Shown piece by piece: positions 11,417-34,988 of a stretch of DNA of 64,000 nucleotides. The stretch covers positions 2,300-66,299 of the forward strand of contig CAJQIN010000009.1 in the NCBI GenBank assembly GCA_905478465.1. Direction: 5' to 3'. The first letter of the stretch is position 1; the number at the start of each line of letters is the position of its first letter. The notes under the pieces are model-generated. The model saw only the letters and a program-made list of their open reading frames with translations. It was not told the DNA's origin and searched no databases. This DNA is from Minisyncoccota bacterium. Its GTDB lineage: Bacteria > Patescibacteriota > Minisyncoccia > Phycocordibacterales > CAJQIN01. The position numbers were made by a program, and so were the translations under genes.

Positions 11417-11421
11417 TACAC

Positions 11422-11706
11422 ATGATCAATACTGAAAAAGAGGTTGAGTGTGTTTTTCGAGGTAAGGTGCAACAAGTTGGCTTCCGGCGCTTTGCCCAAA
11501 AGCATGCAGAAAAGATGGGCCTTGTTGGGTATGCAGAAAATGAAGAAGATGGTAGTCTCACTGTGGTTGCTCAGGGAGAAGAAGCTGATTTACTTTTATT
11601 TATAGACCTTCTAAAAAAAGGTCCATACTTTTCTCGAATAGATTCTTGTAATACACAATGGTCAACTCTCTTGCAAGATTCTTTAATCGATTTTTCAATT
11701 TTTTAA
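11422..11706 (+). CDS. acyP: acylphosphatase
   Basis: 'FRGKVQQVGFRRFA' matches the acylphosphatase signature (V.G.VQGV.FR), and the size fits (~90 aa). Confidence 0.75.
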   Translation: MINTEKEVECVFRGKVQQVGFRRFAQKHAEKMGLVGYAENEEDGSLTVVAQGEEADLLLFIDLLKKGPYFSRIDSCNTQWSTLLQDSLIDFSIF

Positions 11707-11709
11707 ACT

Positions 11710-12435
11710 ATGAACAATATTACTATTCTATACGAAGACGATCAGTCTCTGGTGATAAACAAACCCGCAGGGATGATGGTTCATCCTGACGGAACATCAA
11801 AGGATAAAACTTTGACTGACTGGATTATGGAAAAATATCCAGAACTTGAAAACATTGGCGAAGAGCAAACTCTTCGAACAGGGGAGACCATCAAGCGTCC
11901 TGGTATTGTTCACCGAATCGATAAGGACACCTCAGGTGTTTTGATTATTGCTAAAACACAGGAAGCATTCCTCCATCTGAAAGAACAATTCCAAGAAAGA
12001 ACGGTAGAAAAAGTCTATCAAGCTTTTGTATATGGACATTTTAATGAAGTAGAAGGAATTATCGACAGACCTATCGGAAAGAGTAAGAAAGACTTTCGAC
12101 GATGGTCTGCCCAGAGAGGTGCTCGTGGAACTCTACGAGAAGCAGTCACAGAATATAAAGTATTATTTTCCGCGAAAGAAGTGTCTTTTGTGGAGCTTTT
12201 CCCCAAGACAGGGCGTACTCACCAATTGCGTGTGCATATGAAAGCCATAAACCATCCATTAGTGAGTGATATTTTGTATGCTCCGAGTCATCAGAGTCTT
12301 TTAGGATTTAAGCGTTTGGCGCTCCATGCAAAGAGTGTTTCTTTTAATAGTCTCTCAGGAGATAGGATAGAGATAATAGCCCCGTATCCAGAGGATTTTG
12401 AGCAGGCTGTTGCGGAAATAAAGACCATGTGTTAG
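11710..12435 (+). CDS. RluA-family 23S/tRNA pseudouridine synthase
   Basis: 'HRIDKDTSGVLIIAKT' contains the catalytic Asp motif, and 'HQLRVH' is also present. Confidence 0.85.
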   Translation: MNNITILYEDDQSLVINKPAGMMVHPDGTSKDKTLTDWIMEKYPELENIGEEQTLRTGETIKRPGIVHRIDKDTSGVLIIAKTQEAFLHLKEQFQERTVEKVYQAFVYGHFNEVEGIIDRPIGKSKKDFRRWSAQRGARGTLREAVTEYKVLFSAKEVSFVELFPKTGRTHQLRVHMKAINHPLVSDILYAPSHQSLLGFKRLALHAKSVSFNSLSGDRIEIIAPYPEDFEQAVAEIKTMC

Positions 12436-19182: not shown

Positions 19183-20046
19183 ATGTTACTTGATGGAAAA
19201 AGGGTTCGAGAGGGTATAAGACAGGATCTAAAGAATGAGATATTAGAAATTGGAATCGAACCAACTTTGGTGATTATTCAGATAGGAGACAAAGAAGAAT
19301 CAAATGCCTATATTGCACAAAAAAAACAATTTGGCCTATCTATTGGAGCAAAAGTTTTGCATGAGAAATTTCCTGAAAACGTTTCTGAAGAAGAAGTTAT
19401 TTCTTGTATTGAAATGTATAACATTCAAGACAATATTCAGGGAATCATCGTTCAACTTCCACTTCCTGCATCTTTTAATATACAAAAAGTTATAGACACT
19501 ATTGATCCTTCGAAAGATGTCGATGGACTTACATCTGTAAATGTAAGAAGGCTTGCTAAGGGAGATACTTCCGGATTCATTCCTGCAACCGCTGCAGGAA
19601 TTTTCACCCTTCTTGAAGATTATAAAATAGAGGTTTCAGGAAAAAAAGTTGTGGTGGTTGGAAGATCAGCTCTTGTCGGAAAACCTGTGGCAGAGCTTGC
19701 TCGTGCAAAAGGAGCGCATGTTGTTGTGTGTCATTCAAAAACTGTAGATGTGCCAAAGGAAACAAAACAGGCAGATATTCTGATTGTGGCTATTGGTGTT
19801 CCTGAATTTTTTAACAAAAATTTCGTCTCAAAAGGACAGACGGTAGTTGATGTTGGTATTAATCTTCGTACAGGTATTCATTTCGATGAAGAGATCCCAG
19901 GAAAAAAATACGTAGGGGATGTTGATTTTGACGAGGTTGTAAATATTGTTTCAGACATTAGTCCTGTTCCTGGTGGGGTAGGACCAATGACGGTAGCATC
20001 TTTATTTGAAAACTTGGTGCAGTCTCTTAGAAAAAATGTGTCATAA
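19183..20046 (+). CDS. folD: bifunctional methylenetetrahydrofolate dehydrogenase / methenyl-THF cyclohydrolase
   Basis: 'MLLDGKRVREGIRQDL...' aligns with the FolD N-terminus. 'GRSALVGKP' is the NAD(P) fold. C-terminal 'PVPGGVGPMTVA'. Confidence 0.9.
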   Translation: MLLDGKRVREGIRQDLKNEILEIGIEPTLVIIQIGDKEESNAYIAQKKQFGLSIGAKVLHEKFPENVSEEEVISCIEMYNIQDNIQGIIVQLPLPASFNIQKVIDTIDPSKDVDGLTSVNVRRLAKGDTSGFIPATAAGIFTLLEDYKIEVSGKKVVVVGRSALVGKPVAELARAKGAHVVVCHSKTVDVPKETKQADILIVAIGVPEFFNKNFVSKGQTVVDVGINLRTGIHFDEEIPGKKYVGDVDFDEVVNIVSDISPVPGGVGPMTVASLFENLVQSLRKNVS

Positions 20047-20114: not shown

Positions 20115-20918
20115 ATGTTTCAAGAATATTCAAAAGAGATAAGAAAGTTTTTTAAGGCAGGTATTTTACTTGCTTTCATGCTGACATTCTTTCTGGCCGT
20201 ATTATCTGTTGTGGCTCTGAAAGAGTATAAACACATCGGAGAAGGGGTGTATCCAGCAAAAACATTATCAATATCTGGTAGTGGAGAGGTATATGCTGTG
20301 CCTGATATTGCACAATTTACATTTACAGTAACAGAGACCGAAGACATCATGTCTGATGCACAAAAAAGTGTAACAGAAAAAATTGATGCAGCTATCAAGG
20401 TTCTGACAGATGCTGGTATCGAGGATAAGGATATAAAAACAACAAACTATAATGCATATCCAAAATACACATATCCCGAGACTATTTGTTATAACGGTAT
20501 TTGTCCTTCTAGAGAACGTGTCCTTTCTGGATACACAGTTTCTCAAGGTATTTCAGTAAAGATTCGAGAAGTCGAACAAGCAGGAGATATTCTAGGTGCT
20601 GTAACTGAAACAGGCGTTTCAAATGTTAGCGGACTTTCTTTTGTGATTGATGACGAAGATGCTCTTCGTACAGAGGCACGAGCTAAAGCTATCGCAGATG
20701 CTCATGACAAAATTGACGTTCTTGCAAAAGAACTTGGTGTAAAGATAAAAGGTGTGACAGGATTCTATGAATCTAATGGATACGATTATCCGCGTCCTGA
20801 ATATGCTTTAAGTGCAAAAGGAGGGGTGTATTCTGAAGACTCGGCTGTATCAGCAAGTATTCCAAGTGGAGAAAATCTGATAAAAATTCAAGTTGATGTA
20901 ATCTATGAGATAGAGTAG
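20115..20918 (+). CDS. SIMPL-domain (DUF541) periplasmic protein
   Basis: TM anchor plus '...LSISGSGEVYAVPDIAQFTFTVTE', typical of the SIMPL / 26-kDa periplasmic immunogenic protein family. Confidence 0.65.
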   Translation: MFQEYSKEIRKFFKAGILLAFMLTFFLAVLSVVALKEYKHIGEGVYPAKTLSISGSGEVYAVPDIAQFTFTVTETEDIMSDAQKSVTEKIDAAIKVLTDAGIEDKDIKTTNYNAYPKYTYPETICYNGICPSRERVLSGYTVSQGISVKIREVEQAGDILGAVTETGVSNVSGLSFVIDDEDALRTEARAKAIADAHDKIDVLAKELGVKIKGVTGFYESNGYDYPRPEYALSAKGGVYSEDSAVSASIPSGENLIKIQVDVIYEIE

Positions 20919-20942
20919 AGGTAAGGATCAGGGTTTGAGAAT

Positions 20943-20974
20943 AAAAACGACATGAGTAAAATCATGTCGTTTTT
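20943..20974 (+). terminator. rho-independent terminator
   Basis: 'aaaaacgacatgagtaaaatcatgtcgttttt'. Confidence 0.65.
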
Positions 20975-21092
20975 GGTATTAAACCCTCACAGGACTTGTG
21001 TTTTATGTTTCTTGACTCTTTTTAGGTATTGAGGTAATATTATCTCATCGACGCCGAAAGGGCGTTTTTTTATAACCAATCATAATATCATT

Positions 21093-21272
21093 ATGAAACT
21101 TATATCTTATTTAAAAGAAACTAGAAGCGAAATGAAGCATGTAAGCTGGCCAACACGCCCGCAGGCTATTGCTTTTACAGTCATCGTTATTGTCATCTCT
21201 CTTTTGACGGCTCTATATCTTGGTGTATTTGACTACATCTTTACCCAAATTGTCTCATTAATTCTTAACTAA
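21093..21272 (+). CDS. secE: preprotein translocase subunit SecE
   Basis: 59-aa ORF, below the ORF-track cutoff: '[34 protein letters not shown]...'. Conserved position directly upstream of nusG. Confidence 0.75.
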
Positions 21273-21283
21273 TTTTTTACCAT

Positions 21284-21835
21284 ATGAGTACAGGAAAACA
21301 AAAAATTCAAGAGGGACGAAATTGGTATGCTATTCATACATATGCAGGATATGAAAATGCTGTGATGCGAAACCTTAAGCAACGAATTGAATCTCTTGGT
21401 ATGGAGGATCGTATTTTTGAAGTAGTTGTTCCTACCGAAACAAAGATCAAGGTAAAAGCAGGGAAACGGATAGAGGAAGAAGAAAAAATCTTCCCCGGAT
21501 ATATTCTTGTTGATATGATAGTGACCGATGACTCTTGGTATGTGGTACGAAATACTCCTCGAGTTACAGGGTTTGTTGGTTCAGGAGTATATCCTGTGCC
21601 AATTGCTCAGGCAGAAGTGGACAAATTATTTAGTCGAATGAATAGCGAGACTGCGAAGCATAAGATTGATTTTGAAGTAAATGATCTTGTAATAGTAATG
21701 GACGGTCCATTTAAGGAGCTTGAAGGAAAAATTAGTGAGGTAGATGAGAGTCGAGGAAAGATTAAGGTGATGGTTTCTATGTTCGGACGAGAAACTCCTG
21801 TAGAACTCGATTTCTTGCAAGTTAAGAAGGTTTAA
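21284..21835 (+). CDS. nusG: transcription termination/antitermination factor NusG
   Basis: '[14 protein letters not shown]' NGN domain, and a C-terminal KOW '[22 protein letters not shown]'. Confidence 0.92.
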
Positions 21836-21858
21836 GGTAATCTAACATTTATTCAACT

Positions 21859-22281
21859 ATGGCAAAACAAGTAGTAAAAAAAGTAAAAGTACAAGCAATG
21901 GGAGGCTCAGCTACACCAGCTCCTCCTCTTGGTCCCGCCTTGGGACAGGCAGGTGTGAACATTGGGGAATTTGTTACCCAGTTTAACGCTGCAACTCAAG
22001 ACAAGAAAGGTCAACTTATCCCTGCTGAAATTTCAGTATATGATGACCGAACATTTAGTTTTATCATTAAAACTCCACCAGCTTCAAATCTTATTCTAAA
22101 AGCTGCAAATATTCAGAAAGGTTCAGGAAAGAATAAGACAAGTAAGGTTGGTAGTATCACAAAGGCTCAGGCACAAGAAATCGCTGAGATTAAGATGCCA
22201 GACCTTAATGCTATGGATATCGAGGCTGCAACAAAAATTGTTGAGGGAACAGCTCGAAGTATGGGTATTGAAGTGAAGTAA
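21859..22281 (+). CDS. rplK: 50S ribosomal protein L11
   Basis: '[26 protein letters not shown]' is the L11 signature. Confidence 0.95.
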
Positions 22282-22296
22282 TTTACTGTCTCTAGA

Positions 22297-22340
22297 CAAA
22301 AACAAAAAACCACTACAAAAGTAGTGGTTTTTTGTTTTTG
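22297..22340 (+). terminator. rho-independent terminator after rplK
   Basis: 'aaaaacaaaaaaccactacaaaagtagtggttttttgtttttg'. Confidence 0.7.
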
Positions 22341-22366
22341 TCCTATTTTTGAGATATAGTACTACA

Positions 22367-22921
22367 ATGATGATTGCAAAAAACTTTGAAAGTCTCCAAT
22401 ATATTATTCAGAAAGAGAGAGATTCTGGAAAAAAAATAGTTCTTACTCAGGGGTCTTTTGACCTTGTACATATTGGACATGCTCGTTATTTACAAAAAGC
22501 AAAAGAACACGGAGATTTTTTGATTGTTGGTATTGATAGTGATAAAAAAATTCAAGTTAGAAAAGGTCCAGATAGGCCTGTTGTACCCCAAGATGAACGA
22601 ATGGAGATGCTGACACATATAAAACACGTTGATCTCGTTGTTCTTAAGGATCTTGATATGCCAAAATGGGGTTTGATAAAAATTGTTAAGCCTGACGTAC
22701 TCATTGGTGTAGAGGGAACATATGATAAGGCGCAGGTTTCTCAATTAGAGAAATTATGTGGACAAGTTACTATTCTTGAACGACAAGCTACTACATCAAC
22801 AAGTGCGAAAATTCGGCATCTTCAAATTGGACTTGCTGATAAGCTTTCAGAAGCTCTAACTCCAAAGATTATTGAAACTATTGAAGTTGTATTTGCTGAT
22901 ATAAAAGAAAAAAATAAATGA
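22367..22921 (+). CDS. cytidylyltransferase-superfamily nucleotidyltransferase, HldE/RfaE domain II-like
   Basis: 'VLTQGSFDLVHIGHARYLQKAKEHGDFLIVGIDSD...RPVVPQDERMEML..VDLVV' matches the heptose-1-P adenylyltransferase / TagD pattern. The upstream TTG lies inside the terminator T-tract, so ATG 22367 is preferred. Confidence 0.65.
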   Translation: MMIAKNFESLQYIIQKERDSGKKIVLTQGSFDLVHIGHARYLQKAKEHGDFLIVGIDSDKKIQVRKGPDRPVVPQDERMEMLTHIKHVDLVVLKDLDMPKWGLIKIVKPDVLIGVEGTYDKAQVSQLEKLCGQVTILERQATTSTSAKIRHLQIGLADKLSEALTPKIIETIEVVFADIKEKNK

Positions 22922-23751
22922 GTAAAATAATTGTTGCATATATTCCAGTTATTCATGAGGGGTATAGAATGTTTTTCGAAAATCATCAGGAGGCTGATAT
23001 TTTGTATCTATTTGGTAAAGATTTCATTTCTGAACATTATTATCTTGAGAAAGACTTACGCGCACTTCCTCCGGAACTTATAAAAAAATCATTAGAGGGA
23101 TGGGGAATTTTTTCAAAGATAGAGATTCTTTCTAAGGAAAATATGCAGAATCTTTCAGGTGCAGACATTATCATGCCAGATGAAGATATCGGTCATGATT
23201 TTGCAGAAAAATATCTTTCGGAAAAAACTAGTGTTTCGTATGATCCAATGTTTCTTCGGTGGGAGAAAGTAAATTTACGACGAGAAAAAAAGGTGGGCGT
23301 TAAGAAAGTGATTACTGAGAATGAATTTATGAATATGGCTTTTAAGCAATCTGAAAAAAGTTCTGATTGGTGGCGACAAGTAGGTGCTGTACTTATTAAA
23401 GATGGAGAAATTGTTTTTAGTCGGAATAATAATCATGTGCCATCACCACAACAGCCGTATGTTGATGGAGATCCTAGAGGTTTGTCCAAGAAGGGGCAAG
23501 ACCTTGATTTGTACACGGCCATTCATGCTGAAGCAGGTATTATCGCAGAGGCCGCAAAGAAGGGAATGTCTCTTGAAGGAACAGAAATGTACGTAACTGA
23601 TTTCCCGTGCCCAACGTGCGCAAAACAAATTGCTTATGCAGGTATAAAAAGAGTCTATTTTACCAATGGATATTCCGTATTAGACGGTGAGAGAATTCTA
23701 AAAAACAATAATGTTGAAATAATTAAAATAGAAAAAAAGGCCACTGAATAA
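22918..23751 (+). CDS. dCMP deaminase (ComEB/CDA fold) with ~135-aa N-terminal domain of unknown function
   Basis: The C-terminal half has 'HAEAGII...PCPTCAKQIAYAGIKRVYF' (H.E / PC..C zinc motifs). The N-terminal 'IVAYIPVIHEGYRMFFE..' domain is unrecognised. ATGA overlap with the upstream gene. Confidence 0.75.
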   Translation: MSKIIVAYIPVIHEGYRMFFENHQEADILYLFGKDFISEHYYLEKDLRALPPELIKKSLEGWGIFSKIEILSKENMQNLSGADIIMPDEDIGHDFAEKYLSEKTSVSYDPMFLRWEKVNLRREKKVGVKKVITENEFMNMAFKQSEKSSDWWRQVGAVLIKDGEIVFSRNNNHVPSPQQPYVDGDPRGLSKKGQDLDLYTAIHAEAGIIAEAAKKGMSLEGTEMYVTDFPCPTCAKQIAYAGIKRVYFTNGYSVLDGERILKNNNVEIIKIEKKATE

Positions 23752-23795
23752 AATCAGGGCCTTTTGTTTTTTGTACTCTTTGTCTGGGATGTTAA

Positions 23796-24419
23796 TTAGA
23801 CAAAATAAGGTTCGACGAGAGCATACTCCTCGTTGGAAAGACAATTTTCCGCTAGTTTTTTGTCATCGAATGAATGTTCTCCAGTGACAAACTCACGTGC
23901 TTCTTCCAGCTGAAACATCTTTATCCAGCAGGCGACGACCAATTTTTTCTTGGCGATTTTGGCCGGATCTTTTGCAATGGTCAATTTTACTTCACCTGTA
24001 CCATCAGGAACATAGATGTTGCAATGGAGATGTCGCATACTTTGAGCATTTTTGGCTGGATTGCCAAAACGCATTAAGAGTGCTCCACCATCAATGTCCT
24101 GTTCTTCGGTAATGATATTTGCAATACCTGCAAGATCTGCCCAGTCTTCACCTGTCATATCCTTGATGTGTGTAATATGACGTTTTGGAGCAATAACAAA
24201 GTGCTTTTCGATAGATTTTGCCATGAATTGTGGAGGACATGTCCACGTGTGCCAAAGTTCAAGGTCAAAAATAACTTTGTTTTTATTGGGATCAAGCTGG
24301 CAGAAAGAACATTCATTTTTACGAATTTGTAGGATCATGTCGCGTGCGTAGTGGTAATTACGGGCATTTTGAAGTAGCGTGATGTCCTGACTATCGAGAC
24401 CTGGGATCGTTTGGTTCAT
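23796..24419 (-). CDS. HIT-superfamily GalT/Ap4A-phosphorylase-like protein
   Basis: 'CSFCQ' zinc knuckle and a 'RHLHCNIYV' HIT-like motif (third His replaced). 207 aa. Confidence 0.5.
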   Translation of the reverse strand: MNQTIPGLDSQDITLLQNARNYHYARDMILQIRKNECSFCQLDPNKNKVIFDLELWHTWTCPPQFMAKSIEKHFVIAPKRHITHIKDMTGEDWADLAGIANIITEEQDIDGGALLMRFGNPAKNAQSMRHLHCNIYVPDGTGEVKLTIAKDPAKIAKKKLVVACWIKMFQLEEAREFVTGEHSFDDKKLAENCLSNEEYALVEPYFV

Positions 24420-24502
24420 TTAAGAACTCCTCATAAAAGAGATGTGTGAAATGTTCATTAATTCTGAACGAAATATTACCTATTTTTTATAGAAAGTCAA
24501 TA

Positions 24503-24988
24503 CTATGACTTCTTGTAATTTTTTGGTTGCCCAAATTTAAAACGCCAAGCTTCTGTTTCTTCGAGGGAATCAAGATCAGGTTCAATCATATGGGCATGTA
24601 TATGAAGCACACTGCTACCGTAGTTACCGTGCTCTGGGTTTGATCCAAAACGAAGGGCAACACCTCCACCTGGAATATTTCTCTTTATAGATTCTTCTTG
24701 GAACATTTTCATGAGTTCTGCTCCTGCTTCAGGCGCCATATCTTTTATATGTTCTATGTGTGTTTTATAGATAGCAAGGAGTTGGTGCTTTATCTTTTTG
24801 TACGGCCACTGATTATCTGTAAGTACCCAATATTTTCCTTCTTTAAGAATTGGATTCTTGTGATATGTTTCTAGGTTCTCACGACAAAAAGGGCAGTGTC
24901 CTGCACTATTTATTTCTTCCATAACCTTTTTCTGGTCATCTCTTCGGACAGAAGACATTTGGATAAATTTATTATTTTTGTCGTTCAT
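24503..24988 (-). CDS. HIT-superfamily GalT/Ap4A-phosphorylase-like protein
   Basis: 'CPFCREN' plus a canonical 'VLHIHAHMI' H.H.H.. motif. Paralogue of the adjacent gene. Confidence 0.55.
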   Translation of the reverse strand: MNDKNNKFIQMSSVRRDDQKKVMEEINSAGHCPFCRENLETYHKNPILKEGKYWVLTDNQWPYKKIKHQLLAIYKTHIEHIKDMAPEAGAELMKMFQEESIKRNIPGGGVALRFGSNPEHGNYGSSVLHIHAHMIEPDLDSLEETEAWRFKFGQPKNYKKS

Positions 24989-25451
24989 ATATATAATATG
25001 TTATATCAAAATTATTTTTCGTATCTTTTAAGTGTTCTTCTGAAAAGACACACTTCCAGTCATTAGAACTATGTTCTGGAAAGAGGGTATCTCCTTCCAC
25101 TTTTGTATGCACGAGGGTTAAGTATATTTTGTCAGCAAGTGGCAAGAATTTTTTGTATATCTCTGCACCACCAATAATAAAGACCTCTTGGTTTTTTGCA
25201 ATGTCTTTAATCTCTTCTATGTCATGCACAATAGTACAGCCGTCGATCAAAATATTTTGTCGGGTAAGAATGATGTTCTCTCTTTTGGGAAGTGGTTTAC
25301 CGATAGATTCGAATGTTTTTCGTCCCATAACAATAGGGTGTCCCATTGTTATTTCTTTGAAATATTTAAAATCACGAGGAAGATGCCATGGAATACCTCC
25401 TTTGTTTCCAATAACGTTATTTTCAGAAACTGCAGCAATGATAGATATCAT
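24972..25451 (-). CDS. folA: dihydrofolate reductase
   Basis: 'MISIIAAVSENNVIGNKGGIPWHLPRDFKYFKEITMGHPIVMGRKTFESIG' is the classic DHFR N-terminus. Confidence 0.92.
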   Translation of the reverse strand: MISIIAAVSENNVIGNKGGIPWHLPRDFKYFKEITMGHPIVMGRKTFESIGKPLPKRENIILTRQNILIDGCTIVHDIEEIKDIAKNQEVFIIGGAEIYKKFLPLADKIYLTLVHTKVEGDTLFPEHSSNDWKCVFSEEHLKDTKNNFDITYYIYERQK

Positions 25452-25453
25452 AT

Positions 25454-26389
25454 CTAGATAGCTACTGGAATAGCTTTTATTCCTGGGTGTGGATTGTAGT
25501 CGGAAAGTTCAAAATCAGTATGACGGAAATCAAAAAAGTTTGTTTTGTCGGTATTCATTTTCATTGTGGCAAGAGTTTTAGATTCACGTTTTAACATCTC
25601 CTCTACGGCTGGAACTTGGTCAACATATATATGGGCATCTGAAAAACTATGAACAAATTCATATGGTTCTGTTCCCGTTGCATGTGCAATGGCAAGAGTG
25701 AGAGCTGCATACTGAACCATATTTGAAGGAACCCCTACCGGTATATCAGCAGAACGCTGGATCATATGAAGAGTTAGCTTGTTATCAATAACACGAATAT
25801 GAATCCATCCGTGACACGGACAGATCGTTACTTTTTGTTGTCGGTCCGTGGTCCGTGCTGTGTATTGTGGTACCCACGGAGTGATGAAATGTGTTCGTAG
25901 ATGAGGTTGTTCTTTTATTTGTTGAATGATTGTTTCAAATTGATTAAAAGATTCACCTTCTGTGGTGGGGAAGTCGTGGAAAGCGGCACCGTATGAACCG
26001 GGTCCGAGGTCTCCTGTTTCAAGTCCACGTTTTGTGCATTTTGCTTCTGTTGCCCATGGATCCCACCAGTTACAGTCAAAGGAACGAATTTCATCGAGAC
26101 GTCTTGCTCCATTTGCGAAAGCAAAAATTTCTCCAATAGCTTGTCTCCAGATAGTAACAGGAAGTCTTTCGGATTCTTTTGGTGCCATGTTTCGTTCATT
26201 GATAATAGGGAAACCATTATCAAGTTTGAAATGTAGGGACGGAGGAGCTATGTGTGTAATAGCATCAACCCCTTGCTGGCTATTGGTTACTCGACCATTT
26301 TCTAATATTGATTTTAGTAAATTTTTATACTGCTCGTCAGGAGTTCGATCACTGACAGGCTTCATATTGGCTGTATTTGTAAATGTCAT
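25454..26389 (-). CDS. thyA: thymidylate synthase family protein (divergent ThyA)
   Basis: Catalytic 'ICPCHGW' Cys motif and '..IQRSADIPVGVPSNMVQYAALT' (compare ThyA 'YQRS.D..LG.PFNIASYALLT'). Start chosen at the internal ATG 26389; the longest ORF reaches 26509. Confidence 0.7.
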   Translation of the reverse strand: MTFTNTANMKPVSDRTPDEQYKNLLKSILENGRVTNSQQGVDAITHIAPPSLHFKLDNGFPIINERNMAPKESERLPVTIWRQAIGEIFAFANGARRLDEIRSFDCNWWDPWATEAKCTKRGLETGDLGPGSYGAAFHDFPTTEGESFNQFETIIQQIKEQPHLRTHFITPWVPQYTARTTDRQQKVTICPCHGWIHIRVIDNKLTLHMIQRSADIPVGVPSNMVQYAALTLAIAHATGTEPYEFVHSFSDAHIYVDQVPAVEEMLKRESKTLATMKMNTDKTNFFDFRHTDFELSDYNPHPGIKAIPVAI

Positions 26390-26494
26390 AATGTGTACAT
26401 TATACACGTTTGGGGTTTTATGTACGAAGATGAATTTTGGGGTATAAGTCAATGGTGTATTGATGGTTTTTTTCTTGATACACTTACAAGTATT

Positions 26495-27667
26495 ATGAAA
26501 GACAAACACATAGCAAAGCTAATTGCACAAGAAAAAAAGCGACAAAACAGTGTTATTAACCTTATCCCATCAGACAACCATTCTTCAGAAGATGTTTTTG
26601 AAGCCCTTGGTTCATGTTTTTCAAATAAGTATTCAGAAGGATACCCTGGAAAACGCTATTATGGAGGACAAGAATTTACCGACAATCTAGAGCTACTCAC
26701 CCAAGAGCGAGCGTTGAAAGCTTTTAAGCTTTCACCCAAAAAATGGCAAGTGAATGTCCAGCCTCTATCTGGTTCTCCGGCAAATCTGGCTACATATATT
26801 GCACTGATGCCAAAGGGAGGAAAAATCATGGGTATGACTCTCAGAAGCGGGGGACATCTAACCCACGGACAGAAGGTGTCTGCCACAGGGATGTTTTTCA
26901 AACAAATTCCGTATGAGGTTGATCCGAAAACAGAACGACTAGACTATGACGCTCTATACAAACTAGCAAAGAAAGAAAAACCAAATGTCATCGTAGCAGG
27001 ATTTACCGCATATCCTCGAAAAATAAATTTCAAAAAATTCAGATTCATCGCTGATAGTTGTGGCGCATACCTCGTGGTAGACATGTCGCATATTGCCGGA
27101 CTCATTGCAGGTGGTGCACATCCATCTCCTTTTCTATATGCTGATGTGGTAACAACAACTACACACAAAACACTTCGTGGACCACGAGGGGCAATGATTT
27201 TTTCTCGGAAAGATGATCGAGACCTTGGTACAAAAATTGATAAAGCTATTTTCCCCGGACTTCAAGGTGGTCCACACATGAACAAGATCGCAGCACTTGC
27301 TGTGACTTTGAATGAGGCAATGACACCTGCTTTCAAAACATATGCAAAAAATGTTGTAGCGAATACAAAGAAACTTGCAGACGAACTAAAAAAGCGAGGA
27401 TGGCGAATTGTCTCTGGCGGAACGGATAATCATTTAATGCTTGTAGATGTCTGGATGGATGGAAAGGGAGTAACTGGAAAGGAGGCAGAGCAAAGACTTG
27501 AAAAGGTTGGGATTATTGTTAACAAAAATACTATTCCTGGGGACAAGCGTTCACCATTTAACCCTTCTGGAATTCGACTTGGAGCAGCAGAGGTAACAAC
27601 AAGAGGAATGAAAGAAAAAGATATGGTGAAGATTGCAGAGAGTATTGATAAAGCTCTTCGAGGATAA
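26495..27667 (+). CDS. glyA: serine hydroxymethyltransferase
   Basis: 'VTTTTHKTLRGPRGAMIF' PLP-lysine motif, and 'LIPSDNHSSEDV'. Confidence 0.92.
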   Translation: MKDKHIAKLIAQEKKRQNSVINLIPSDNHSSEDVFEALGSCFSNKYSEGYPGKRYYGGQEFTDNLELLTQERALKAFKLSPKKWQVNVQPLSGSPANLATYIALMPKGGKIMGMTLRSGGHLTHGQKVSATGMFFKQIPYEVDPKTERLDYDALYKLAKKEKPNVIVAGFTAYPRKINFKKFRFIADSCGAYLVVDMSHIAGLIAGGAHPSPFLYADVVTTTTHKTLRGPRGAMIFSRKDDRDLGTKIDKAIFPGLQGGPHMNKIAALAVTLNEAMTPAFKTYAKNVVANTKKLADELKKRGWRIVSGGTDNHLMLVDVWMDGKGVTGKEAEQRLEKVGIIVNKNTIPGDKRSPFNPSGIRLGAAEVTTRGMKEKDMVKIAESIDKALRG

Positions 27668-27668
27668 C

Positions 27669-28097
27669 ATGTCACTTGTATTAAAAATAAAAAAATTAGA
27701 TACTGATCTCCCAACTCCAGCATATGGATATATAGGAGACGCTGCTTTTGACCTTTTTGCTAAAGAAACAACAATTCTCAAGCCAGGAGAAAGAAAAGCT
27801 ATCCCAACAGGACTCGCCCTAGAAATTCCTGATGGATATGTGGGTCTTGTATGGGACAAAAGTGGTATTGGGATAAAGGAAGGGGTAAAGACTCTCGGAG
27901 GTGTTGTCGATGCAACATATCGAGGAGAAGTACTTGTCGGAGTGGTAAACCTTTCCGAAAAAGAATACACCTTTGAACGAGGACATAAGGTTGCTCAGAT
28001 GATTATTCAAAAAAAAGAAGAAGTACAAATTGAAATTGTTGAGGAATTAACAGAAACAGAAAGGGGTGAGGGTAAGTTTGGATCAACAGGAAAATGA
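27669..28097 (+). CDS. dut: dUTP diphosphatase
   Basis: 'YGYIGDAAFDLFA', '...GLVWDKSGIG', 'RGEV' dUTPase motifs. Confidence 0.9.
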   Translation: MSLVLKIKKLDTDLPTPAYGYIGDAAFDLFAKETTILKPGERKAIPTGLALEIPDGYVGLVWDKSGIGIKEGVKTLGGVVDATYRGEVLVGVVNLSEKEYTFERGHKVAQMIIQKKEEVQIEIVEELTETERGEGKFGSTGK

Positions 28098-28309
28098 TAA
28101 AAATTGGAGAAAAATACAAACACTTTAAAGGACGCGAATATGAAATCGTGTCTTTGGCAAAAGACTCAGAAACACTAGAGGACGTGGTGATATACAAAGG
28201 GCTATATGAGCCATATCAAACATGGACACGACTACTTTCAAACTTCGAAGAAGAGGTGGAAAGACCAGAGATTCCATACAAGGGCCCAAGGTTCGTGAGA
28301 ACAGTTTGA
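28094..28309 (+). CDS. DUF1653-family small protein
   Basis: 'YKHFKGREYEIVSLAKDSETLEDVVIYKGLY' matches the DUF1653 pattern. ATGA overlap with dut. Confidence 0.55.
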   Translation: MIKIGEKYKHFKGREYEIVSLAKDSETLEDVVIYKGLYEPYQTWTRLLSNFEEEVERPEIPYKGPRFVRTV

Positions 28310-28405: not shown

Positions 28406-28870
28406 ATGGTAACTACAAGTAGGTATTTTATTCGACATGATTATCGTGATGAGAATGGGGACGAGCAGACGATGTGGATGTTCCAGTATGAAGAAAAATG
28501 TTATGTCATTGATGAGGGGATAGTGTCTTATTTGGCTAATGATTTTCCAGAATACTCACTTTTTGATCTTGCTGTTCTTTCTATTTTCATTAAGCGGATA
28601 GAAAGTGTTATATTTTTTAGTCAGCAATATGCTATTTCTATAGCCCAACAAGAAGACCGGCGAGTAAGGTTGGCAAAAGAAAGTCAGAACACAAGATCTT
28701 CTTTAAACGAAGTTTCTCCTAGTCGTATAAGGGGTATCTTTTTTGAAAAAGATTTCAATCCAAAAGGTACCTTGTCTATGGGGAATTTGGTCTCAGGTAT
28801 GACAGAAGACTGTCGTTGGAGTGGCTCATGGGATAACGGAGTGCGTGCTATGGAGGATAGAAATTATTGA
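28406..28870 (+). CDS. hypothetical protein
   Basis: 154 aa. No recognisable homology. Confidence 0.35.
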   Translation: MVTTSRYFIRHDYRDENGDEQTMWMFQYEEKCYVIDEGIVSYLANDFPEYSLFDLAVLSIFIKRIESVIFFSQQYAISIAQQEDRRVRLAKESQNTRSSLNEVSPSRIRGIFFEKDFNPKGTLSMGNLVSGMTEDCRWSGSWDNGVRAMEDRNY

Positions 28871-28876: not shown

Positions 28877-28930
28877 CCCGCACTTCATATGATATGTATA
28901 CACATATCATATGAAGTGCGGGTTTTTTCT
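28877..28930 (+). terminator. 46-nt perfect palindrome followed by T6 (strong terminator)
   Basis: 'cccgcacttcatatgatatgtatacacatatcatatgaagtgcggg' followed by 'tttttt'. Confidence 0.7.
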
Positions 28931-31478: not shown

Positions 31479-34400
31479 TTGTATATTATGAGTGAAGAAC
31501 AGAAATCTGATATCGCCAAGAGGGAAGAGGAAATCTTGTCTTTTTGGCAAAAAAACGATATTTTCAAAAAAAGTCTCGCAAAACCTGCACCCGGAGGTAA
31601 TTTTGTTTTTTATGATGGGCCTCCTTTTGCCACAGGTCTTCCTCATTATGGACACATTCTAGCTGGAACAATGAAGGATGTTATTCCCCGATATCAAACA
31701 ATGAAAGGAAAATATGTTCGACGTGTTTGGGGATGGGATTGCCATGGTCTACCTATTGAAAAACTGATTCAAGAAGAATTAGGTGTAAAAACAAAAGCAG
31801 ATATCGAGGATCTTGGTATAGAAAAATTTAATGAATCAGCACGTTCAAGTGTTTTTCGGTATGATCGTGAGTGGCAAAAAGTTGTGCCACGTACTGGACG
31901 CTTCGTGGACATGGAGAATCAATACACAACCATGGATCCAAACTTTACCGAATCTGTGTGGTGGGGATTTAAGGAGATTCATAAGAAAGGCTTGGTGTAT
32001 GAAGATTTTAAATCTATGCATCTTTCTCCGCTTCTTGAAACACCTCTTTCTAACTTTGAGGTTAATCAGAATTATAAAGATATAGAAGATATTTCTATCT
32101 ATGTGGAATTTCGATTACTTGATGAACCGGACACATCTCTCATTGCTTGGACAACGACACCGTGGACCATTCCTGGAAATGTAGCTTTGGCTGTAGGAGA
32201 AGATATTGAATATGTCGAAATAGAAAAAAAGGATGAGGGAGATGTAAAATTCATTCTTGCTAAAGAACGTCTTAAAGATGTCCTGAAAGACAGCGAGTAT
32301 GAAATCACGCGTACTTTTAAAGGAAAAGATCTAATCGGAAAATCATACAAACCAGTCTTTGACTGCTATGCAAACGATGAAACTCTAGAAAACCGAGAAA
32401 ATGGCTGGAAGGTATATGGTGCAGATTTTGTAACCACGGAAGACGGAACAGGAATCGTGCACATTGCACCTGCTTTCGGAGAAGATGACTTGTTATTGGG
32501 TAGGGAACATAACCTTCCTTTTGTTCAGCATGTCAAAATGGACGGAACTATAAAACCAGAAGTAGCCGAATTTGCTGGTCGACAAGCAAAACCAAAAAGT
32601 ACTAAAGAAGAGCCAAAGAAACATCAAGAAACTGATATTGAAGTATTGAAAGTAATTGCCCATAAAGGATTTTTGTTCGCAAAAGAAAAATACACCCACT
32701 CATATCCACATTGTTGGAGAACAGATGCTCCGCTTCTAAACTACGCTATGAGTTCCTGGTTTATTAAAGTTACCGAAATAAAAGATGCACTGATACGAGA
32801 AAACCAAACAACTAACTGGGTACCGAAGGATATAAAAGATGGACGTTTTGGAAAGTGGCTTGAAGGTGCACGTGACTGGGCTATTTCTCGAAATCGATAT
32901 TGGGGCGCACCTATACCTATTTGGCAATCTGAGGACAAAAAAGAAACAGAAGTGATTGGATCTATTGCAGAACTACAAGAAAAAAGACCAGATCTTCTCA
33001 GAGATATATACGTCATGCGTCACGGGGAGAGTGAAAAAAATATTCTTGGTTTGTATGATAAGGAACTTGAAAAATATCCATTGACTGAAAAGGGAAGAGA
33101 ACAGGTGCAGACATCTGTTCAAGGTCTAAAAGAATCTGGTATTGATATGATCATTTCTTCCCCAGTTCTTCGTGCCCGAGAAACAGCAGAGATTGTCGGA
33201 AAAGGTCTGGGACTTGATGTGGAAATTCGCCAAGAACTAATGGAAGTTGATAGCGGGGAATGGGATGGGGAAAAGGAAAAAGATATTGCTGAGAAAAATA
33301 CCTATAACCTTTCTTCTGATGAAGACTACTACACTACCAAACGCGGTGAGACAGGGGAGTCTTGGCAGAGTGTGGAAGATCGAGCCAAAAGTTTCGTTGA
33401 GGGTATTTTAAAAGAATTTCCAGGAAAGAAAATACTTCTTGTGACACACGGAGGAGTGATTTTGTATATGGTAAAACATCTGAAAAGGCTTTCTGTTGCT
33501 CAAACAAGAAAATTATTTGATGTTTCTACATACGACTCGTATGCAACAGCATCACATTTTGTAGTGGATATGAATACTGGAAAAGCCTTTGATTTCCACC
33601 GACCATATATAGATAACATCACATGGAAAAATAAAGATGGTCAGGAAATGAAACGCATTGAAGCTGTATTTGATACATGGATTGATTCTGGTTCAATGCC
33701 TTTTGCTCAAGTGCATTATCCATTTGAAAATAAAGAATCTTTTGAGCAAAAAGATAGCCCTCTTTTTCCAGCAGATTTTATTGCTGAAGGGCTTGATCAG
33801 ACTCGCGGATGGTTTTACACACTTATGGTTCTGAATACAGGTCTTTTTGATAGGACGCCTTTTAAGAACGTTATCGTGAATGGTCTTGTTCTTGCTGAAG
33901 ATGGAAAGAAGATGTCAAAGAGTTTGAAAAACTATCCTGATGTTTTTGATATTTTCAATAAATATGGAGCAGATGCTATGCGTTATTACATGCTGGCATC
34001 TCCTATTGTGAAAGCTGAGGACTTAGCTTTTTCTGAAAAAGGAGTTGATGAAGTAGTAAAAAAAATAATACGTCGATTAAAAAATGTTTATTCTTTTTAT
34101 GAACTATATAAAACAGAAGATGCACAAACAGCATGTCCAGAAAGCACTAACGTACTCGATACTTGGTTATTGGCACGATTAACAGAACTCGGGGGAGAGG
34201 TAACACGTTCTCTGGATTCATTTGAACTTGATAGGGCAACTCGACCTTTTGGAGATTTTGTGGATGACCTGTCTACCTGGTATCTTCGACGTTCACGAGA
34301 TCGAGTAAAAGGAGACGACGAAGTAGACAAGCGTTATGCATTAGAAACTCTTTCTTTTGTATTGAGAGAAGTATCAAAATATCTGGCACCATTTATGCCA

Positions 34401-34988
34401 TTTTTGGCAGAAGACTTGTATCAGAGTTTGAAACTTGAGTCAGATGTTGAAAGTGTTCACCTTGAGAACTGGCCAGAAACAAAAGAATTAACTGAGGATC
34501 AGAAAGAAAACATTATATTAATGAAGGAAACTCGAGAGGTTATTTCTTTGGCCCTTGAATTACGTTCAAAATCTGGAATAAAAGTACGACAACCTCTGCA
34601 GAAAGTTACTATTGATAATAAAAATCTAACAGGAAAAGATAGCCTTCTTGATCTTGTAAAAGATGAGATGAATGTAAAAGAAGTGATTGTTGGAGATGAA
34701 CTTTCTTTGGATACTGTTATTACACCAGTATTAAAAGAAGAGGGAGCCGTGCGAGATATCATACGAGCAGTACAAGACTTGCGAAAGAAAACAGATCTTG
34801 TGCCTGATGATGTTATTTCATTAAATTTTGATACTTCAGAATCTGTAAAGAAAATAATTGAAACCTATATACAAGATCTTCAAAAACAAGTGAATGCTGT
34901 ATCTGTTGATTTTGCTGCTACTGAAGGAACACTTGTCCAAACTGAATGTGGTGATGTTTCTATCTCCCTACAAAAAGTATCTACATAA
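31479..34988 (+). CDS. ileS: isoleucyl-tRNA synthetase (type 2) carrying an inserted histidine-phosphatase (PGAM/SixA-like) domain
   Basis: 'PPFATGLPHYGHIL' (HIGH), 'WAISRNRYWGAPIPIW' and 'KKMSKSLKNYPD'. An in-frame ~195-aa insertion at nt ~33005..33590 contains 'VMRHGESEKN', 'SSPVLRARETA' and 'LLVTHGGVI'. Confidence 0.9.
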   Translation: MYIMSEEQKSDIAKREEEILSFWQKNDIFKKSLAKPAPGGNFVFYDGPPFATGLPHYGHILAGTMKDVIPRYQTMKGKYVRRVWGWDCHGLPIEKLIQEELGVKTKADIEDLGIEKFNESARSSVFRYDREWQKVVPRTGRFVDMENQYTTMDPNFTESVWWGFKEIHKKGLVYEDFKSMHLSPLLETPLSNFEVNQNYKDIEDISIYVEFRLLDEPDTSLIAWTTTPWTIPGNVALAVGEDIEYVEIEKKDEGDVKFILAKERLKDVLKDSEYEITRTFKGKDLIGKSYKPVFDCYANDETLENRENGWKVYGADFVTTEDGTGIVHIAPAFGEDDLLLGREHNLPFVQHVKMDGTIKPEVAEFAGRQAKPKSTKEEPKKHQETDIEVLKVIAHKGFLFAKEKYTHSYPHCWRTDAPLLNYAMSSWFIKVTEIKDALIRENQTTNWVPKDIKDGRFGKWLEGARDWAISRNRYWGAPIPIWQSEDKKETEVIGSIAELQEKRPDLLRDIYVMRHGESEKNILGLYDKELEKYPLTEKGREQVQTSVQGLKESGIDMIISSPVLRARETAEIVGKGLGLDVEIRQELMEVDSGEWDGEKEKDIAEKNTYNLSSDEDYYTTKRGETGESWQSVEDRAKSFVEGILKEFPGKKILLVTHGGVILYMVKHLKRLSVAQTRKLFDVSTYDSYATASHFVVDMNTGKAFDFHRPYIDNITWKNKDGQEMKRIEAVFDTWIDSGSMPFAQVHYPFENKESFEQKDSPLFPADFIAEGLDQTRGWFYTLMVLNTGLFDRTPFKNVIVNGLVLAEDGKKMSKSLKNYPDVFDIFNKYGADAMRYYMLASPIVKAEDLAFSEKGVDEVVKKIIRRLKNVYSFYELYKTEDAQTACPESTNVLDTWLLARLTELGGEVTRSLDSFELDRATRPFGDFVDDLSTWYLRRSRDRVKGDDEVDKRYALETLSFVLREVSKYLAPFMPFLAEDLYQSLKLESDVESVHLENWPETKELTEDQKENIILMKETREVISLALELRSKSGIKVRQPLQKVTIDNKNLTGKDSLLDLVKDEMNVKEVIVGDELSLDTVITPVLKEEGAVRDIIRAVQDLRKKTDLVPDDVISLNFDTSESVKKIIETYIQDLQKQVNAVSVDFAATEGTLVQTECGDVSISLQKVST

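Follow-up and report, generated by a model that had tools for sequence, protein, structure and literature searches.

Within the 64,000-nucleotide stretch of Minisyncoccota DNA analysed here (the window), we identified nine genes at 22367–28309 on the basis of open reading frames and of Pfam and NCBIfam matches (Table 1). A first-pass annotation had proposed that the complete thymidylate cycle is encoded at this one locus, and the genes concerned, namely, folD, glyA, thyA, folA, dut and one with a DCTD-type deaminase domain, were all present. Also as proposed, folD is located nearby, 2.3 kb upstream of the thymidylate cluster, and is separated from it by SIMPL and secE–nusG–rplK, all confirmed by Pfam. 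The interval itself spans 5.9 kb, and the originally given extent of ~9 kb applies only when folD is counted in. The ATGA-type overlaps and divergent arrangement were likewise recovered: NT (a nucleotidyltransferase-family protein) overlaps the deaminase gene by 4 nt, dut overlaps DUF1653 by 4 nt, and thyA and glyA are divergent with ~108 bp between them. Based on the coordinates, folA overlaps the start of HIT161 by 17 nt, and the gaps of thyA/folA and glyA/dut are 2 nt and 1 nt, respectively. The SHMT Pfam alignment of glyA opens at Met 26498, and the alternative start given by the gene caller is 26420. The dut product matched NF001862 with 136 bits (cut-off, 103), and ORF154 had no match in Pfam, NCBIfam, PADLOC or PHROGs.

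Table 1. Features of the thymidylate locus and its upstream flank (positions in the window)
Feature	Position	Strand	Description
folD (methylene-THF dehydrogenase/cyclohydrolase)	19183..20046	+	Upstream outlier of cluster; Pfam THF_DHG_CYH, THF_DHG_CYH_C
SIMPL	20115..20918	+	Intervening housekeeping gene (block 20115..22281); Pfam
secE	21093..21272	+	Intervening housekeeping gene; Pfam, SecE match 66 bits
nusG	21284..21835	+	Intervening housekeeping gene; Pfam
rplK	21859..22281	+	Intervening housekeeping gene; Pfam
Strong intrinsic terminator	22295..22342	+	3' of rplK, upstream boundary of cluster; 20-pair stem then T-run
NT, 184 aa	22367..22921	+	Stand-alone cytidylyl/adenylyl-transferase-family, HldE-domain-II/TagD-like; PF01467 CTP_transf_like 72.6 bits
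Deaminase, 277 aa	22918..23751	+	Two-domain dCMP deaminase
Deaminase N-domain, residues ~1–130	22918..23310	+	Predicted cytidylyltransferase-fold domain outside Pfam
dCMP-deaminase (DCTD-type) catalytic domain	23317..23751	+	PF00383 dCMP_cyt_deam_1, 62.7 bits
HIT207	23796..24419	-	Accessory HIT-superfamily paralogue; weak DcpS_C and HIT Pfam matches
HIT161	24503..24988	-	HIT-superfamily protein, thyA/folA-coupled; DcpS_C 26.8 bits
folA (dihydrofolate reductase)	24972..25451	-	PF00186 211.7 bits
thyA (thymidylate synthase, 311 aa)	25454..26389	-	PF00303 211 bits; reduced phosphate clamp
Divergent thyA/glyA intergenic region	26390..26497		Shared promoters presumed here
glyA (serine hydroxymethyltransferase)	probably 26498..27667	+	PF00464 553 bits
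dut (dUTP diphosphatase)	27669..28097	+	PF00692 92.7 bits
DUF1653 small protein	28094..28309	+	PF07866 71 bits
ORF154	28406..28870	+	Last ORF ahead of downstream terminator
Strong intrinsic terminator	28877..28922	+	Downstream boundary of cluster; 20-pair stem, 9 G-C pairs, then T-run

GTDB species that encode the two-domain deaminase number at least 553 and belong to many classes of Patescibacteria; the protein falls into 1214 clusters at 90% identity. We compared 82 related loci, drawn from many Patescibacteria classes, for the genes lying up to 5 kb from the deaminase. NT immediately preceded the deaminase in 81 of the 82 loci, usually in translational coupling; the gap between its stop and the deaminase start was 15 nt or less in 49 of 55, with an ATGA-type overlap in 16. 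Within the same 5 kb, we detected thyA (75/82), HIT161 (69/82), folA (66/82), glyA (42/82), dut (39/82, often adjoining thyA) and a folD homologue (13/82; 25/82 in 10-kb flanks), which was immediately 3' of glyA in four loci (L032, L036, L042 and L052). Genes for tmk and a YfbR-like dNMP nucleotidase were frequent in the same clusters. HIT161 shared the strand of thyA in all 68 loci carrying both as separate genes, directly adjoining it in 52 and with folA in between in 15. In seven or eight loci (L021, L032, L042, L044/L049, L058, L063 and L084), it formed the C-terminal part of a fusion with DHFR. HIT207 was found in 26 of the 82 loci, in either orientation, with three further tandem double-HIT versions. 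DUF1653 had no homologue in 80 related loci, and this gene is specific to this lineage. The NT–deaminase neighbourhood persists across deep Patescibacteria lineages at 40–58% protein identity, while the other neighbours change. Recurrence in 82 related loci puts the clustering far beyond chance. The locus is a thymidylate (deoxypyrimidine) supra-operon that is conserved vertically and widespread in the ultra-small Patescibacteria. These comparisons show that NT, the deaminase N-domain and HIT161 are three lineage-specific fixed parts of this unit, and that HIT207 is an optional extra. The assignment of the atypical NT and HIT genes to the thymidylate cluster, which had hinged on synteny in relatives, was borne out by the NT–deaminase adjacency, the co-strand position of HIT161 and thyA, and the DHFR–HIT fusions.

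Pfam dCMP_cyt_deam_1 covers only residues 134–248 of the deaminase. Residues 1–130 matched no Pfam, NCBIfam, PHROG or PADLOC family, in agreement with the earlier description of a domain without known family. The N-domain carries the motifs AYIPVxHxGY, K45/R48, IMPDED and FLRWD, of which HxGY, K/R, PDED and FLRW were invariant in the family. An AF2 model of the N-domain (pLDDT 87.8, pTM 0.78) gave the Fom1 cytidylyltransferase domain, TagD, 3glv, PPAT and CCT as top Foldseek matches. The N-domain is confidently predicted to adopt a cytidylyltransferase fold; its HxGY motif has Tyr in place of the second His of HxGH. Among the best 150 of 427 clusters at 50% identity, it was N-terminal in proteins of ~275–300 aa or in shorter fragments, with a single exception (P0343, 224 aa, match at residues 73–198). 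The full-length deaminase model had a pTM of 0.58, with uncertain inter-domain geometry. The catalytic domain matched the PHROG dCMP deaminase family (122.7 bits), its best sequence and structure matches were the S-TIM5, T4, S. mutans and human dCMP deaminases, and its HAE and PCxxC motifs were invariant in the family. The core also partially matched anti-phage dCTP deaminase models (NCBIfam, PADLOC). The DCTD allosteric motif, defined as G(Y/W)N(A/G) (PMC12088426), was degenerate in this family, with R-N-N-N in the window.

The best NCBIfam match of NT was rfaE domain II (TIGR02199), at 119 bits against a cut-off of 181.5, and its solved relatives were ECT, HldC, TagD and CCT. NT is publicly annotated as 'heptose 1-phosphate adenylyltransferase', and a sugar-nucleotide-type role had been implied for it at first; with a score below the HldE-type cut-off, that role was not supported. 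Neither heptose-pathway nor sugar genes were detected in the neighbourhoods of the window and related loci, and no GmhA, HldE-kinase, GmhB or TagF-type genes were found near NT in the window. The motifs HxGH, KGPxRP and ATTSTSAKIR were conserved across the NT family, whose catalytic set HxGH/KGPxRP/ATTSTS, that of active cytidylyltransferases, is intact and near-invariant. Comparison of the N-domain with the NT family by hhalign aligned the HxGH region in register at a non-significant E of 0.11. Because of this value, and because no NT–deaminase fusion occurred among the 120 closest NT relatives, a physical complex of the two proteins can only be inferred.

HIT161 carries the motifs CPFC, RFG and HxHxH/Q, and its closest relatives among the matches listed, including those of Zambryskibacteria and Uhrbacteria, were 71–87% identical. 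HIT207, which aligns with the HIT161 family, has an HLHxN motif, in which the third motif residue is H, N or Q across relatives, and a C-terminal extension of ~60 aa. Both proteins had been described as GalT/Ap4A-phosphorylase-like. This identity was not supported, given that the nearest solved relatives are of the Hint/Fhit type (E 6e-7 for the HIT161 family profile, compared with only 0.003–0.1 for GalT). Since an ordinary, separate HinT is encoded elsewhere in the genome, the HIT genes of the cluster appear to be specialised paralogues.

The thyA product scored 174.7 bits with TIGR03284 (cut-off, 108) and was 30% identical to E. coli ThyA, relative to which it retains C146, H147, Q165, R166, S167, D169, N177, H207, Y209 and E58. 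In the ThyA family, Cys146, Glu58, His147, Tyr94 and Asn177, the residue responsible for dUMP specificity, were invariant. Two of the four phosphate-binding arginines were lost across the family, with R21 replaced by Q in 64 of 76 members and R127 by T in 74 of 76. In mutagenesis, R21 and R127 are the most mutation-tolerant arginines of the clamp. The description of this thyA as divergent is thus correct for the overall sequence and for these two arginines, but not otherwise, as every catalytic residue and all methylase residues are kept. Judging from these residues, thyA encodes a genuine thymidylate synthase.

We tentatively favour, as possible rather than probable, a mechanism in which NT and the N-domain would act as a front end to the deaminase, handling (d)CTP, and a HIT enzyme would resolve a nucleotidyl conjugate. 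NT would pair with the N-domain of related fold, as do the two cytidylyltransferase domains of ECT or the paired subunits in homodimeric TagD and CCT. The pair would take (d)CTP and move (d)CMP onto a phosphorylated acceptor with the release of PPi, and the HIT enzyme would then cut the resulting nucleotidyl phosphoanhydride, a bond type matching HIT chemistry. The net result would be the conversion of dCTP to dCMP, needed by organisms whose deaminase works at the monophosphate level. The deaminase would convert dCMP to dUMP and ThyA would convert dUMP to dTMP, with further dUMP supplied from dUTP by Dut; FolA would return DHF to THF, to be recharged by GlyA and FolD. Mammalian cytidylyltransferases, which produce dCDP-choline and dCDP-ethanolamine whose turnover gives dCMP, would be a precedent for the chemistry proposed for NT. 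Also in its favour are the wide synteny and tight coupling of the genes, the predicted fold and invariant motifs of the N-domain, the conserved catalytic motifs of NT, the degenerate DCTD allosteric motif, the separate HinT and the lack of heptose-pathway or sugar genes in the neighbourhoods. Several points speak against this mechanism. The coupling partners of HIT161 are thyA and folA rather than the deaminase, contrary to what a simple dCMP-releasing role would lead one to expect, and two-enzyme hydrolysis of dCTP is more complex than that by a MazG- or Nudix-type pyrophosphatase. The non-significant similarity of the N-domain to NT, the lack of NT–deaminase fusions among the 120 closest NT relatives and the uncertain inter-domain geometry of the full-length model count against it as well.

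The degenerate allosteric motif is also consistent with another role, in which the N-domain, with or without NT, would be a dCTP/dTTP sensor controlling the deaminase allosterically in place of the canonical inter-subunit site, and HIT161 would independently trim nucleotides. A nucleotide-binding N-domain joined to a DCTD-like domain is precedented in the anti-phage dCTP deaminase, whose models partially match the deaminase core, and in CDADC1, and the Tyr of HxGY fits binding without catalysis. However, near-invariant catalytic motifs in NT are unlikely for a pure sensor, and the equally conserved HIT161–thyA coupling and the DHFR–HIT fusions are left unexplained; we consider such a sensor rather unlikely. 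Alternatively, NT might turn deoxycytidylate into an activated conjugate, dCDP-X, to serve as substrate of the deaminase (giving dUDP-X) and then of ThyA (giving dTDP-X), and HIT161 might free dTMP, or dTDP by phosphorolysis. HIT161 is invariably co-directional with thyA, NT chemistry makes the same bond type that HIT chemistry breaks, and the R21Q and R127T replacements would give room and less charge round the substituted phosphate. This scheme is nevertheless improbable: Dut, which yields free dUMP, Tmk, which takes dTMP, and the YfbR-like dNMP nucleotidase imply free monophosphate intermediates, no candidate for X is encoded, and in Vibrio a naturally occurring thymidylate synthase with R127' changed to Gly works on dUMP all the same (PMC6005164).

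The public annotation of NT, its best curated model, the proximity of the HIT161 profile to generic Hint proteins and the small, gene-dense genomes would also suit an NT that makes sugar or alcohol nucleotides for the envelope (as an ADP-heptose or CDP-glycerol type of synthase), with generic Hint-like hydrolases for HITs and an adjacency due to genome compactness only. This is hard to reconcile with an adjacency kept over deep lineages among changing neighbours, conserved start/stop overlaps, DHFR–HIT fusions and a deaminase domain predicted to share the fold of NT; moreover, NT falls under the HldE equivalog cut-off, the GmhA, HldE-kinase, GmhB and TagF-type partners are absent nearby, and the canonical HinT is elsewhere. 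We regard it as improbable. The first-pass annotation had raised a nucleotide-salvage or modified-pyrimidine pathway, of which a nucleotide-processing add-on is likely but a modified-base pathway is unsupported. In the latter, suggested by the divergent thyA sequence and by the transferase-type enzymes adjoining it, the thyA homologue would encode a hydroxymethylase or some similar enzyme, with NT and HIT adding groups to the base in the manner of phage DNA hypermodification. Such a pathway is very improbable in view of the invariant ThyA residues, including Asn177, and of the tight coupling of thyA to DHFR, required only when true methylation yields dihydrofolate. In addition, dut, tmk and the YfbR-like nucleotidase share the clusters, which are chromosomally conserved in the species counted above. 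No phage relatives of the cluster were found, PADLOC gave no complete defence-system match, and the cluster contained no glycosyl- or amino-transferases. The presence of three uncharacterised nucleotide-handling proteins in a conserved cluster hints at an undescribed step of dTMP synthesis in Patescibacteria.

The locus encodes a complete dTMP cycle together with three fixed accessory modules, namely, a stand-alone nucleotidyltransferase of 184 aa (NT), an additional N-terminal domain of the deaminase (N-domain), and a HIT-superfamily protein, HIT161; a second HIT protein, HIT207, is an optional extra (both designated after their lengths in amino acids). ORF, Pfam and NCBIfam analyses resolved the cluster into three tightly packed transcription units between two strong terminators, and showed that every gene named in the first-pass annotation of this thymidylate/folate supercluster is real and correctly placed. 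The scores of folA, glyA, dut and folD were far over the family thresholds, and the identity of secE, located between folD and the cluster, was confirmed. The segment is chromosomal with a low GC content (approximately 37%), its nearest named relatives are Paceibacterota/Patescibacteria MAGs, and identical or near-identical copies are present in marine metagenome assemblies. DUF1653 had no counterpart in any of the 80 related loci checked, which makes it a lineage-specific passenger outside the core of the cluster. ORF154 had no homologue in the related loci either, and searches of Pfam, NCBIfam, PHROGs and PADLOC yielded no match for it.

Features of the thymidylate cluster, and number of loci (82 loci around deaminase homologues) with a homologue counted within 5 kb of the deaminase
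Feature	Position	Strand	Arrangement	Loci
folD	19183-20046		2.3 kb upstream of cluster; SIMPL, secE, nusG and rplK in between	13/82
Strong terminator	22295-22342		after rplK; upstream bracket of cluster	
NT	22367-22921	+	4-nt overlap with deaminase gene	81/82
Deaminase	22918-23751	+	directly after NT	
HIT207	23796-24419	-	83-nt gap with promoter-like site ahead	26/82, plus 3 double-HIT forms
HIT161	24503-24988	-	downstream of folA	69/82; DHFR-fused loci additional
folA	24972-25451	-	17-nt overlap with HIT161	66/82
thyA	25454-26389	-	2-nt gap to folA	75/82
glyA	26498-27667	+	divergent from thyA	42/82
dut	27669-28097	+	glyA unit	39/82
DUF1653	28094-28309	+	4-nt overlap with dut (translational coupling)	
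ORF154	28406-28870	+	final ORF ahead of closing terminator	
Strong terminator	28877-28922		downstream bracket of cluster	
tmk				15/82
YfbR-like HD nucleotidase				10/82

Several features of the surrounding DNA were also recorded. The usual array secE-nusG-rplK-rplA-rplJ-rplL is broken (21093-22281 versus 60222-61232): rplK is followed by the terminator and the thymidylate cluster, rplJ and rplL lie approximately 38 kb off, and no rplA was seen beside rplK. At 63853-64000 (+), the window closes within the 5' part of a 23S rRNA gene, and five tRNA genes are located at 8.3-13.9 kb. An isoleucyl-tRNA synthetase-like ORF of 1169 aa (31479-34988, +) carries a complete His_Phos_1 domain (phosphoglycerate-mutase-type histidine phosphatase; residues 510-679, 138 bits) inside its class-I catalytic domain. 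Tandem HisRS-family paralogues were found at 4146-5498 (+) and 5607-6896 (+), with tRNA-synt_His scores of 97 and 158 bits, of which one may be HisZ-like or otherwise diverged.

The two-domain deaminase forms 1214 clusters at 90% identity and is present in at least 553 GTDB species, the labelled lineages including Paceibacteria, Woesebacteria, WWE3, Moranbacteria, Uhrbacteria, Taylorbacteria, Zambryskibacteria and Kaiserbacteria. The gap between the NT stop and the deaminase start was 15 nt or less in 49 of the 55 loci with a placeable start, including 16 with an ATGA-type overlap. HIT161 was co-directional with thyA in all 68 loci compared, either directly adjacent (52 loci) or with folA in between (15 loci), and DHFR and the HIT161 domain form one polypeptide in seven to eight loci (L021, L032, L042, L044/L049, L058, L063 and L084). 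The operon interpretation of the first-pass annotation had been staked on synteny of the NT and HIT genes with thymidylate genes in relatives, and this linkage was retained. Phage origin of the cluster was rejected, as a tblastn search of 50,697 phage records with HIT161 and the N-domain returned no match. At one Woesebacteria locus (L014), neither thyA nor HIT161 was present within 10 kb, and the NT-deaminase pair is separated from folA-dut-tmk by a gene of the F420-0:gamma-glutamyl-ligase family (11020-11808, +; 122 bits), which may encode a folate/cofactor glutamylation enzyme.

Residues 134-248 of the deaminase matched dCMP_cyt_deam_1 (PF00383; 62.7 bits), and the HAE and PCxxC zinc motifs (H203, E205, C231 and C234) were invariant in the family. 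The top sequence and fold matches of this domain were the dCMP deaminases of S-TIM5, T4, S. mutans, human and PBCV-1, and the domain has the HxE and PCxxC zinc site of DCTD-type enzymes (T4 Cd, S-TIM5, S. mutans and human DCTD), to which it is 27-31% identical. These enzymes are single-domain proteins of approximately 20 kDa that form homohexamers and are regulated at the allosteric motif G(Y/W)N(A/G) (PMC12088426). In contrast, the protein of the window is 277 aa long with an extra N-terminal domain of 130 aa, and its allosteric motif is degenerate ([A/R/G][H/Y/F]N[Q/K/H/E/R] in the family and R-N-N-N in the window, only the Asn being invariant).

Residues 1-130 could be assigned to no family of Pfam, NCBIfam, PHROGs or PADLOC, and carry the invariant motifs AYIPVxHxGY, K45/R48, IMPDED and FLRWD. 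A confident AlphaFold2 model (pLDDT 87.8, pTM 0.78) was compared by Foldseek, and the matches pointed to the cytidylyltransferase/HUP nucleotidyltransferase fold, the best being the Fom1 cytidylyltransferase domain, TagD, Thermoplasma 3glv, PPAT and CCT (5x3d at E 6.9e-4, 1coz, 2b7l and 3glv; probability 0.99-1.0, TM about 0.55-0.6). The HxGY motif sits after strand 1, and hhalign placed this loop exactly on the HxGH loop of NT in an alignment of the two families that was itself not significant (E 0.11). On the model, the N-domain adopts a cytidylyltransferase fold, a claim resting on fold and not on sequence-level proof. An exhaustive HMMER scan detected the N-domain in 427 clusters at 50% identity; in the best 150 of these, it was located at the N-terminus of proteins of approximately 275-300 aa or of shorter fragments, with P0343 (224 aa, match at residues 73-198) as the lone architectural outlier.

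An accessory N-terminal domain before a DCTD-like catalytic domain is also found in the AvcD-type anti-phage dCTP deaminases and in vertebrate CDADC1, but there it is P-loop-kinase-like or an inactive deaminase domain. The deaminase core alone aligned with NF041025 (80.8 bits; cut-off 400) and with the PADLOC dCTPase profile (82 bits). We rejected a defence-system reading: PADLOC yielded this partial match and a marginal ThsC-HIT match, and the context is one of housekeeping thymidylate genes, unlike the defence context of AvcD-type enzymes.

NT is a clear member of PF01467 (72.6 bits; cut-off 21), with HldE domain II, ECT, HldC and TagD as the nearest families, and its catalytic signatures, GSFDxxHIGH, RKGPxRP and ATTSTSAKIR, were near-invariant. 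Compared with the PF01467 families TagD, CCT, ECT, HldE domain II and Fom1, NT retains all the catalytic motifs; the N-domain shares the fold, but Tyr replaces the second His of HxGH (HxGY), no RTEGISTT signature is present, and Pfam does not detect the domain. The public annotation of NT is heptose-1-phosphate adenylyltransferase, an LPS-heptose enzyme. The score against the HldE-II equivalog TIGR02199 was 119.3 bits, under the cut-off of 181.5, the TagD equivalog cut-off was likewise missed, and the Pfam annotation of neighbouring genes, in the window as well as in three related entries (L004 and L005/L006), showed no heptose-pathway gene (GmhA, heptokinase or GmhB). No NT-deaminase fusion was detected among the best 120 NT relatives. 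Active and divergent cytidylyltransferase domains can function as a pseudo-dimer in ECT; we know of no PF01467 member that serves as a deaminase partner.

Both HIT proteins carry a CxFC motif and the His-x-His core (HIHAH in HIT161 and HLHCN in HIT207). HIT161 scored 26.8 bits against DcpS_C (cut-off 24) and 17 bits against PF01230, below the cut-off of 21.5, and its relatives, those of Zambryskibacteria and Uhrbacteria included, showed 71-87% identity among the 120 listed. The label of GalT/Ap4A-phosphorylase, proposed in the first-pass annotation, found no support in Pfam, where no GalT or ATP_transf match was obtained at E < 0.01, or in the structure-profile search, since the HIT family profile matched Hint/Fhit-type structures at E 6e-7 and GalT less well, at E 0.003-0.1. 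The HIT profile, the CxxC and the His-x-His nucleophile motif are shared with the Hint/Fhit branch, GalT being more distant; HIT161 and HIT207 differ from this branch as separate lineage-specific families, of which HIT161 is genomically tied to the thyA-folA pair and, at some loci, is part of a DHFR fusion protein. In each of the two families, the third residue of the HIT motif varied among H, Q and N, so that either a hydrolase or a transferase would be compatible with the sequences. A canonical HinT-type protein of 144 aa with clear DcpS_C and HIT Pfam matches is encoded upstream of the window on the same contig (L088, 2791-3225, +). This brings the HIT paralogues of the organism to three (HinT, HIT161 and HIT207), and with an ordinary HinT encoded outside the cluster, the cluster copies are regarded as specialised. 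In some relatives, the HIT207-type gene is replaced by one for a protein of approximately 300 aa: L004 9021-9914 (-), L033 5537-6124 (-) and L035 10006-11097 (-). The L004 protein (297 aa) has two tandem HIT-like halves aligning to HIT207, recalling the two-half architecture of GalT; the L033 and L035 proteins were matched to the one of L004.

ThyA of the window was described in the first-pass annotation as divergent. This holds for the sequence, which is 30% identical to that of E. coli ThyA and has lost two phosphate-clamp arginines, but not for the family assignment or the catalytic residues. The scores were 211.3 bits against PF00303 (cut-off 24.3) and 174.7 bits against the equivalog TIGR03284 (cut-off 108.35), and alignment to E. 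coli ThyA, whose numbering is used here, showed retention of Cys146, His147, Glu58, Tyr94, Gln165, Arg166, Ser167, Asp169, Asn177, His207 and Tyr209, and of the C-terminal PHPGIKAxPVAI. C146, E58, H147 and Y94 were invariant in 76/76 family members, and N177, the uracil (dUMP) specificity residue, was conserved in 75/76. From these residues, the protein is predicted to be a true dUMP-methylating synthase and not a hydroxymethylase; methyl transfer from CH2-THF to dUMP, with DHF as the product, is supported indirectly by the obligate coupling with folA. In the dUMP phosphate clamp (R21, R126', R127' and R166), R166 and R126 are kept, whereas R21 is replaced by Gln in 64 and R127 by Thr in 74 of the 76 orthologues, indicating a family-wide trait. 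The thymidylate synthase of VAAP-clade Vibrio, an otherwise canonical enzyme, has a natural Arg127'-to-Gly substitution, reported as a first, which raises the Km and leaves activity (PMC6005164). By analogy with this single loss, the missing arginines do not exclude membership of the ThyA family; the double loss (R21Q, R127T) in Patescibacteria is unusual, yet not proof of another substrate. The exceptions among the loci were too few for a correlation between arginine status and the presence of HIT161.

Taken as a whole, the Patescibacteria cluster works as a canonical thymidylate operon, with genuine ThyA, DHFR, SHMT, FolD and Dut and a DCTD-type deaminase. The logic is that of known thyA-folA/dTMP clusters, in which ThyA yields dTMP and DHF, DHFR converts DHF to THF, and SHMT and FolD recharge the cofactor; the difference is that a two-domain deaminase and an enzyme of the cytidylyltransferase family are obligate members. 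Consecutive enzymes are also tightly coupled or fused in known systems, as in the DHFR-TS of protozoa and plants, but the DHFR partner there is thymidylate synthase, and in Patescibacteria a HIT domain. The departures are the fusion of a cytidylyltransferase fold with the deaminase, the obligate coupled NT, the HIT protein coupled to thyA or fused to DHFR, and a ThyA devoid of two arginines. The core of the cluster is ordinary, and it is the conserved additions that lack an explanation. No description of an NT-deaminase-HIT thymidylate cluster was found in the literature searched, although coverage elsewhere is possible.

NT-type enzymes convert an NTP and a phosphorylated acceptor to NMP-P-acceptor and PPi, and HIT enzymes attack the alpha-phosphate of NMP-X; the two chemistries are complementary. 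Because deamination at the monophosphate level demands a step from dCTP to dCMP, we tentatively favour a model in which NT and the N-domain would act as a (d)CTP-handling front end supplying the fused deaminase. The second cytidylyltransferase-fold module, located on the deaminase, could be the partner of NT in a pair of the kind known from ECT or from TagD/CCT dimers, and a HIT enzyme would resolve the nucleotidyl intermediate. A purely allosteric role of the N-domain and NT is possible but rather doubtful: it fits the degenerate DCTD allosteric motif, but not the intact catalytic set of NT.

A carrier-linked pathway on dNDP-X conjugates would account for both the trimmed phosphate clamp of ThyA and the thyA-HIT coupling, but the presence of dut, tmk and a dNMP nucleotidase in the clusters implies free monophosphates, and such a pathway is unlikely. 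Its explicit form, in which NT would make dCDP-X from dCTP, the deaminase and the trimmed-clamp ThyA (R21Q, R127T) would process the conjugate, and HIT would release dTMP or dTDP, appears quite improbable; if true, it would hold down the pools of free dUMP and dUTP in cells whose repair capacity is minimal, and would represent a new form of the universal dTMP pathway. Mere hitch-hiking of the NT and HIT genes is likewise unlikely and is poorly supported; the synteny of NT and HIT161, the overlaps and the fusions are standard genomic signatures of functional linkage. The modified-pyrimidine pathway suggested in the first-pass annotation is equally poorly supported and highly improbable, and the corresponding modified-base/hydroxymethylase reading of thyA was rejected based on the conserved active site and the coupling of thyA to DHFR.

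Thymidylate synthesis is among the best-understood and most drug-targeted pathways, with an enzyme set generally regarded as complete. Nevertheless, at least 553 species-level genomes of a very large bacterial radiation, in which nucleotide economy is central to the symbiotic lifestyle, carry three conserved nucleotide-handling modules fixed to this pathway. The roles of NT, the N-domain and HIT161 could reveal a dCTP-to-dCMP route in organisms with a monophosphate-level deaminase, or a new regulation or channelling of dUMP supply, and function would be assigned to widespread ‘hypothetical’ or misnamed genes of Patescibacteria.
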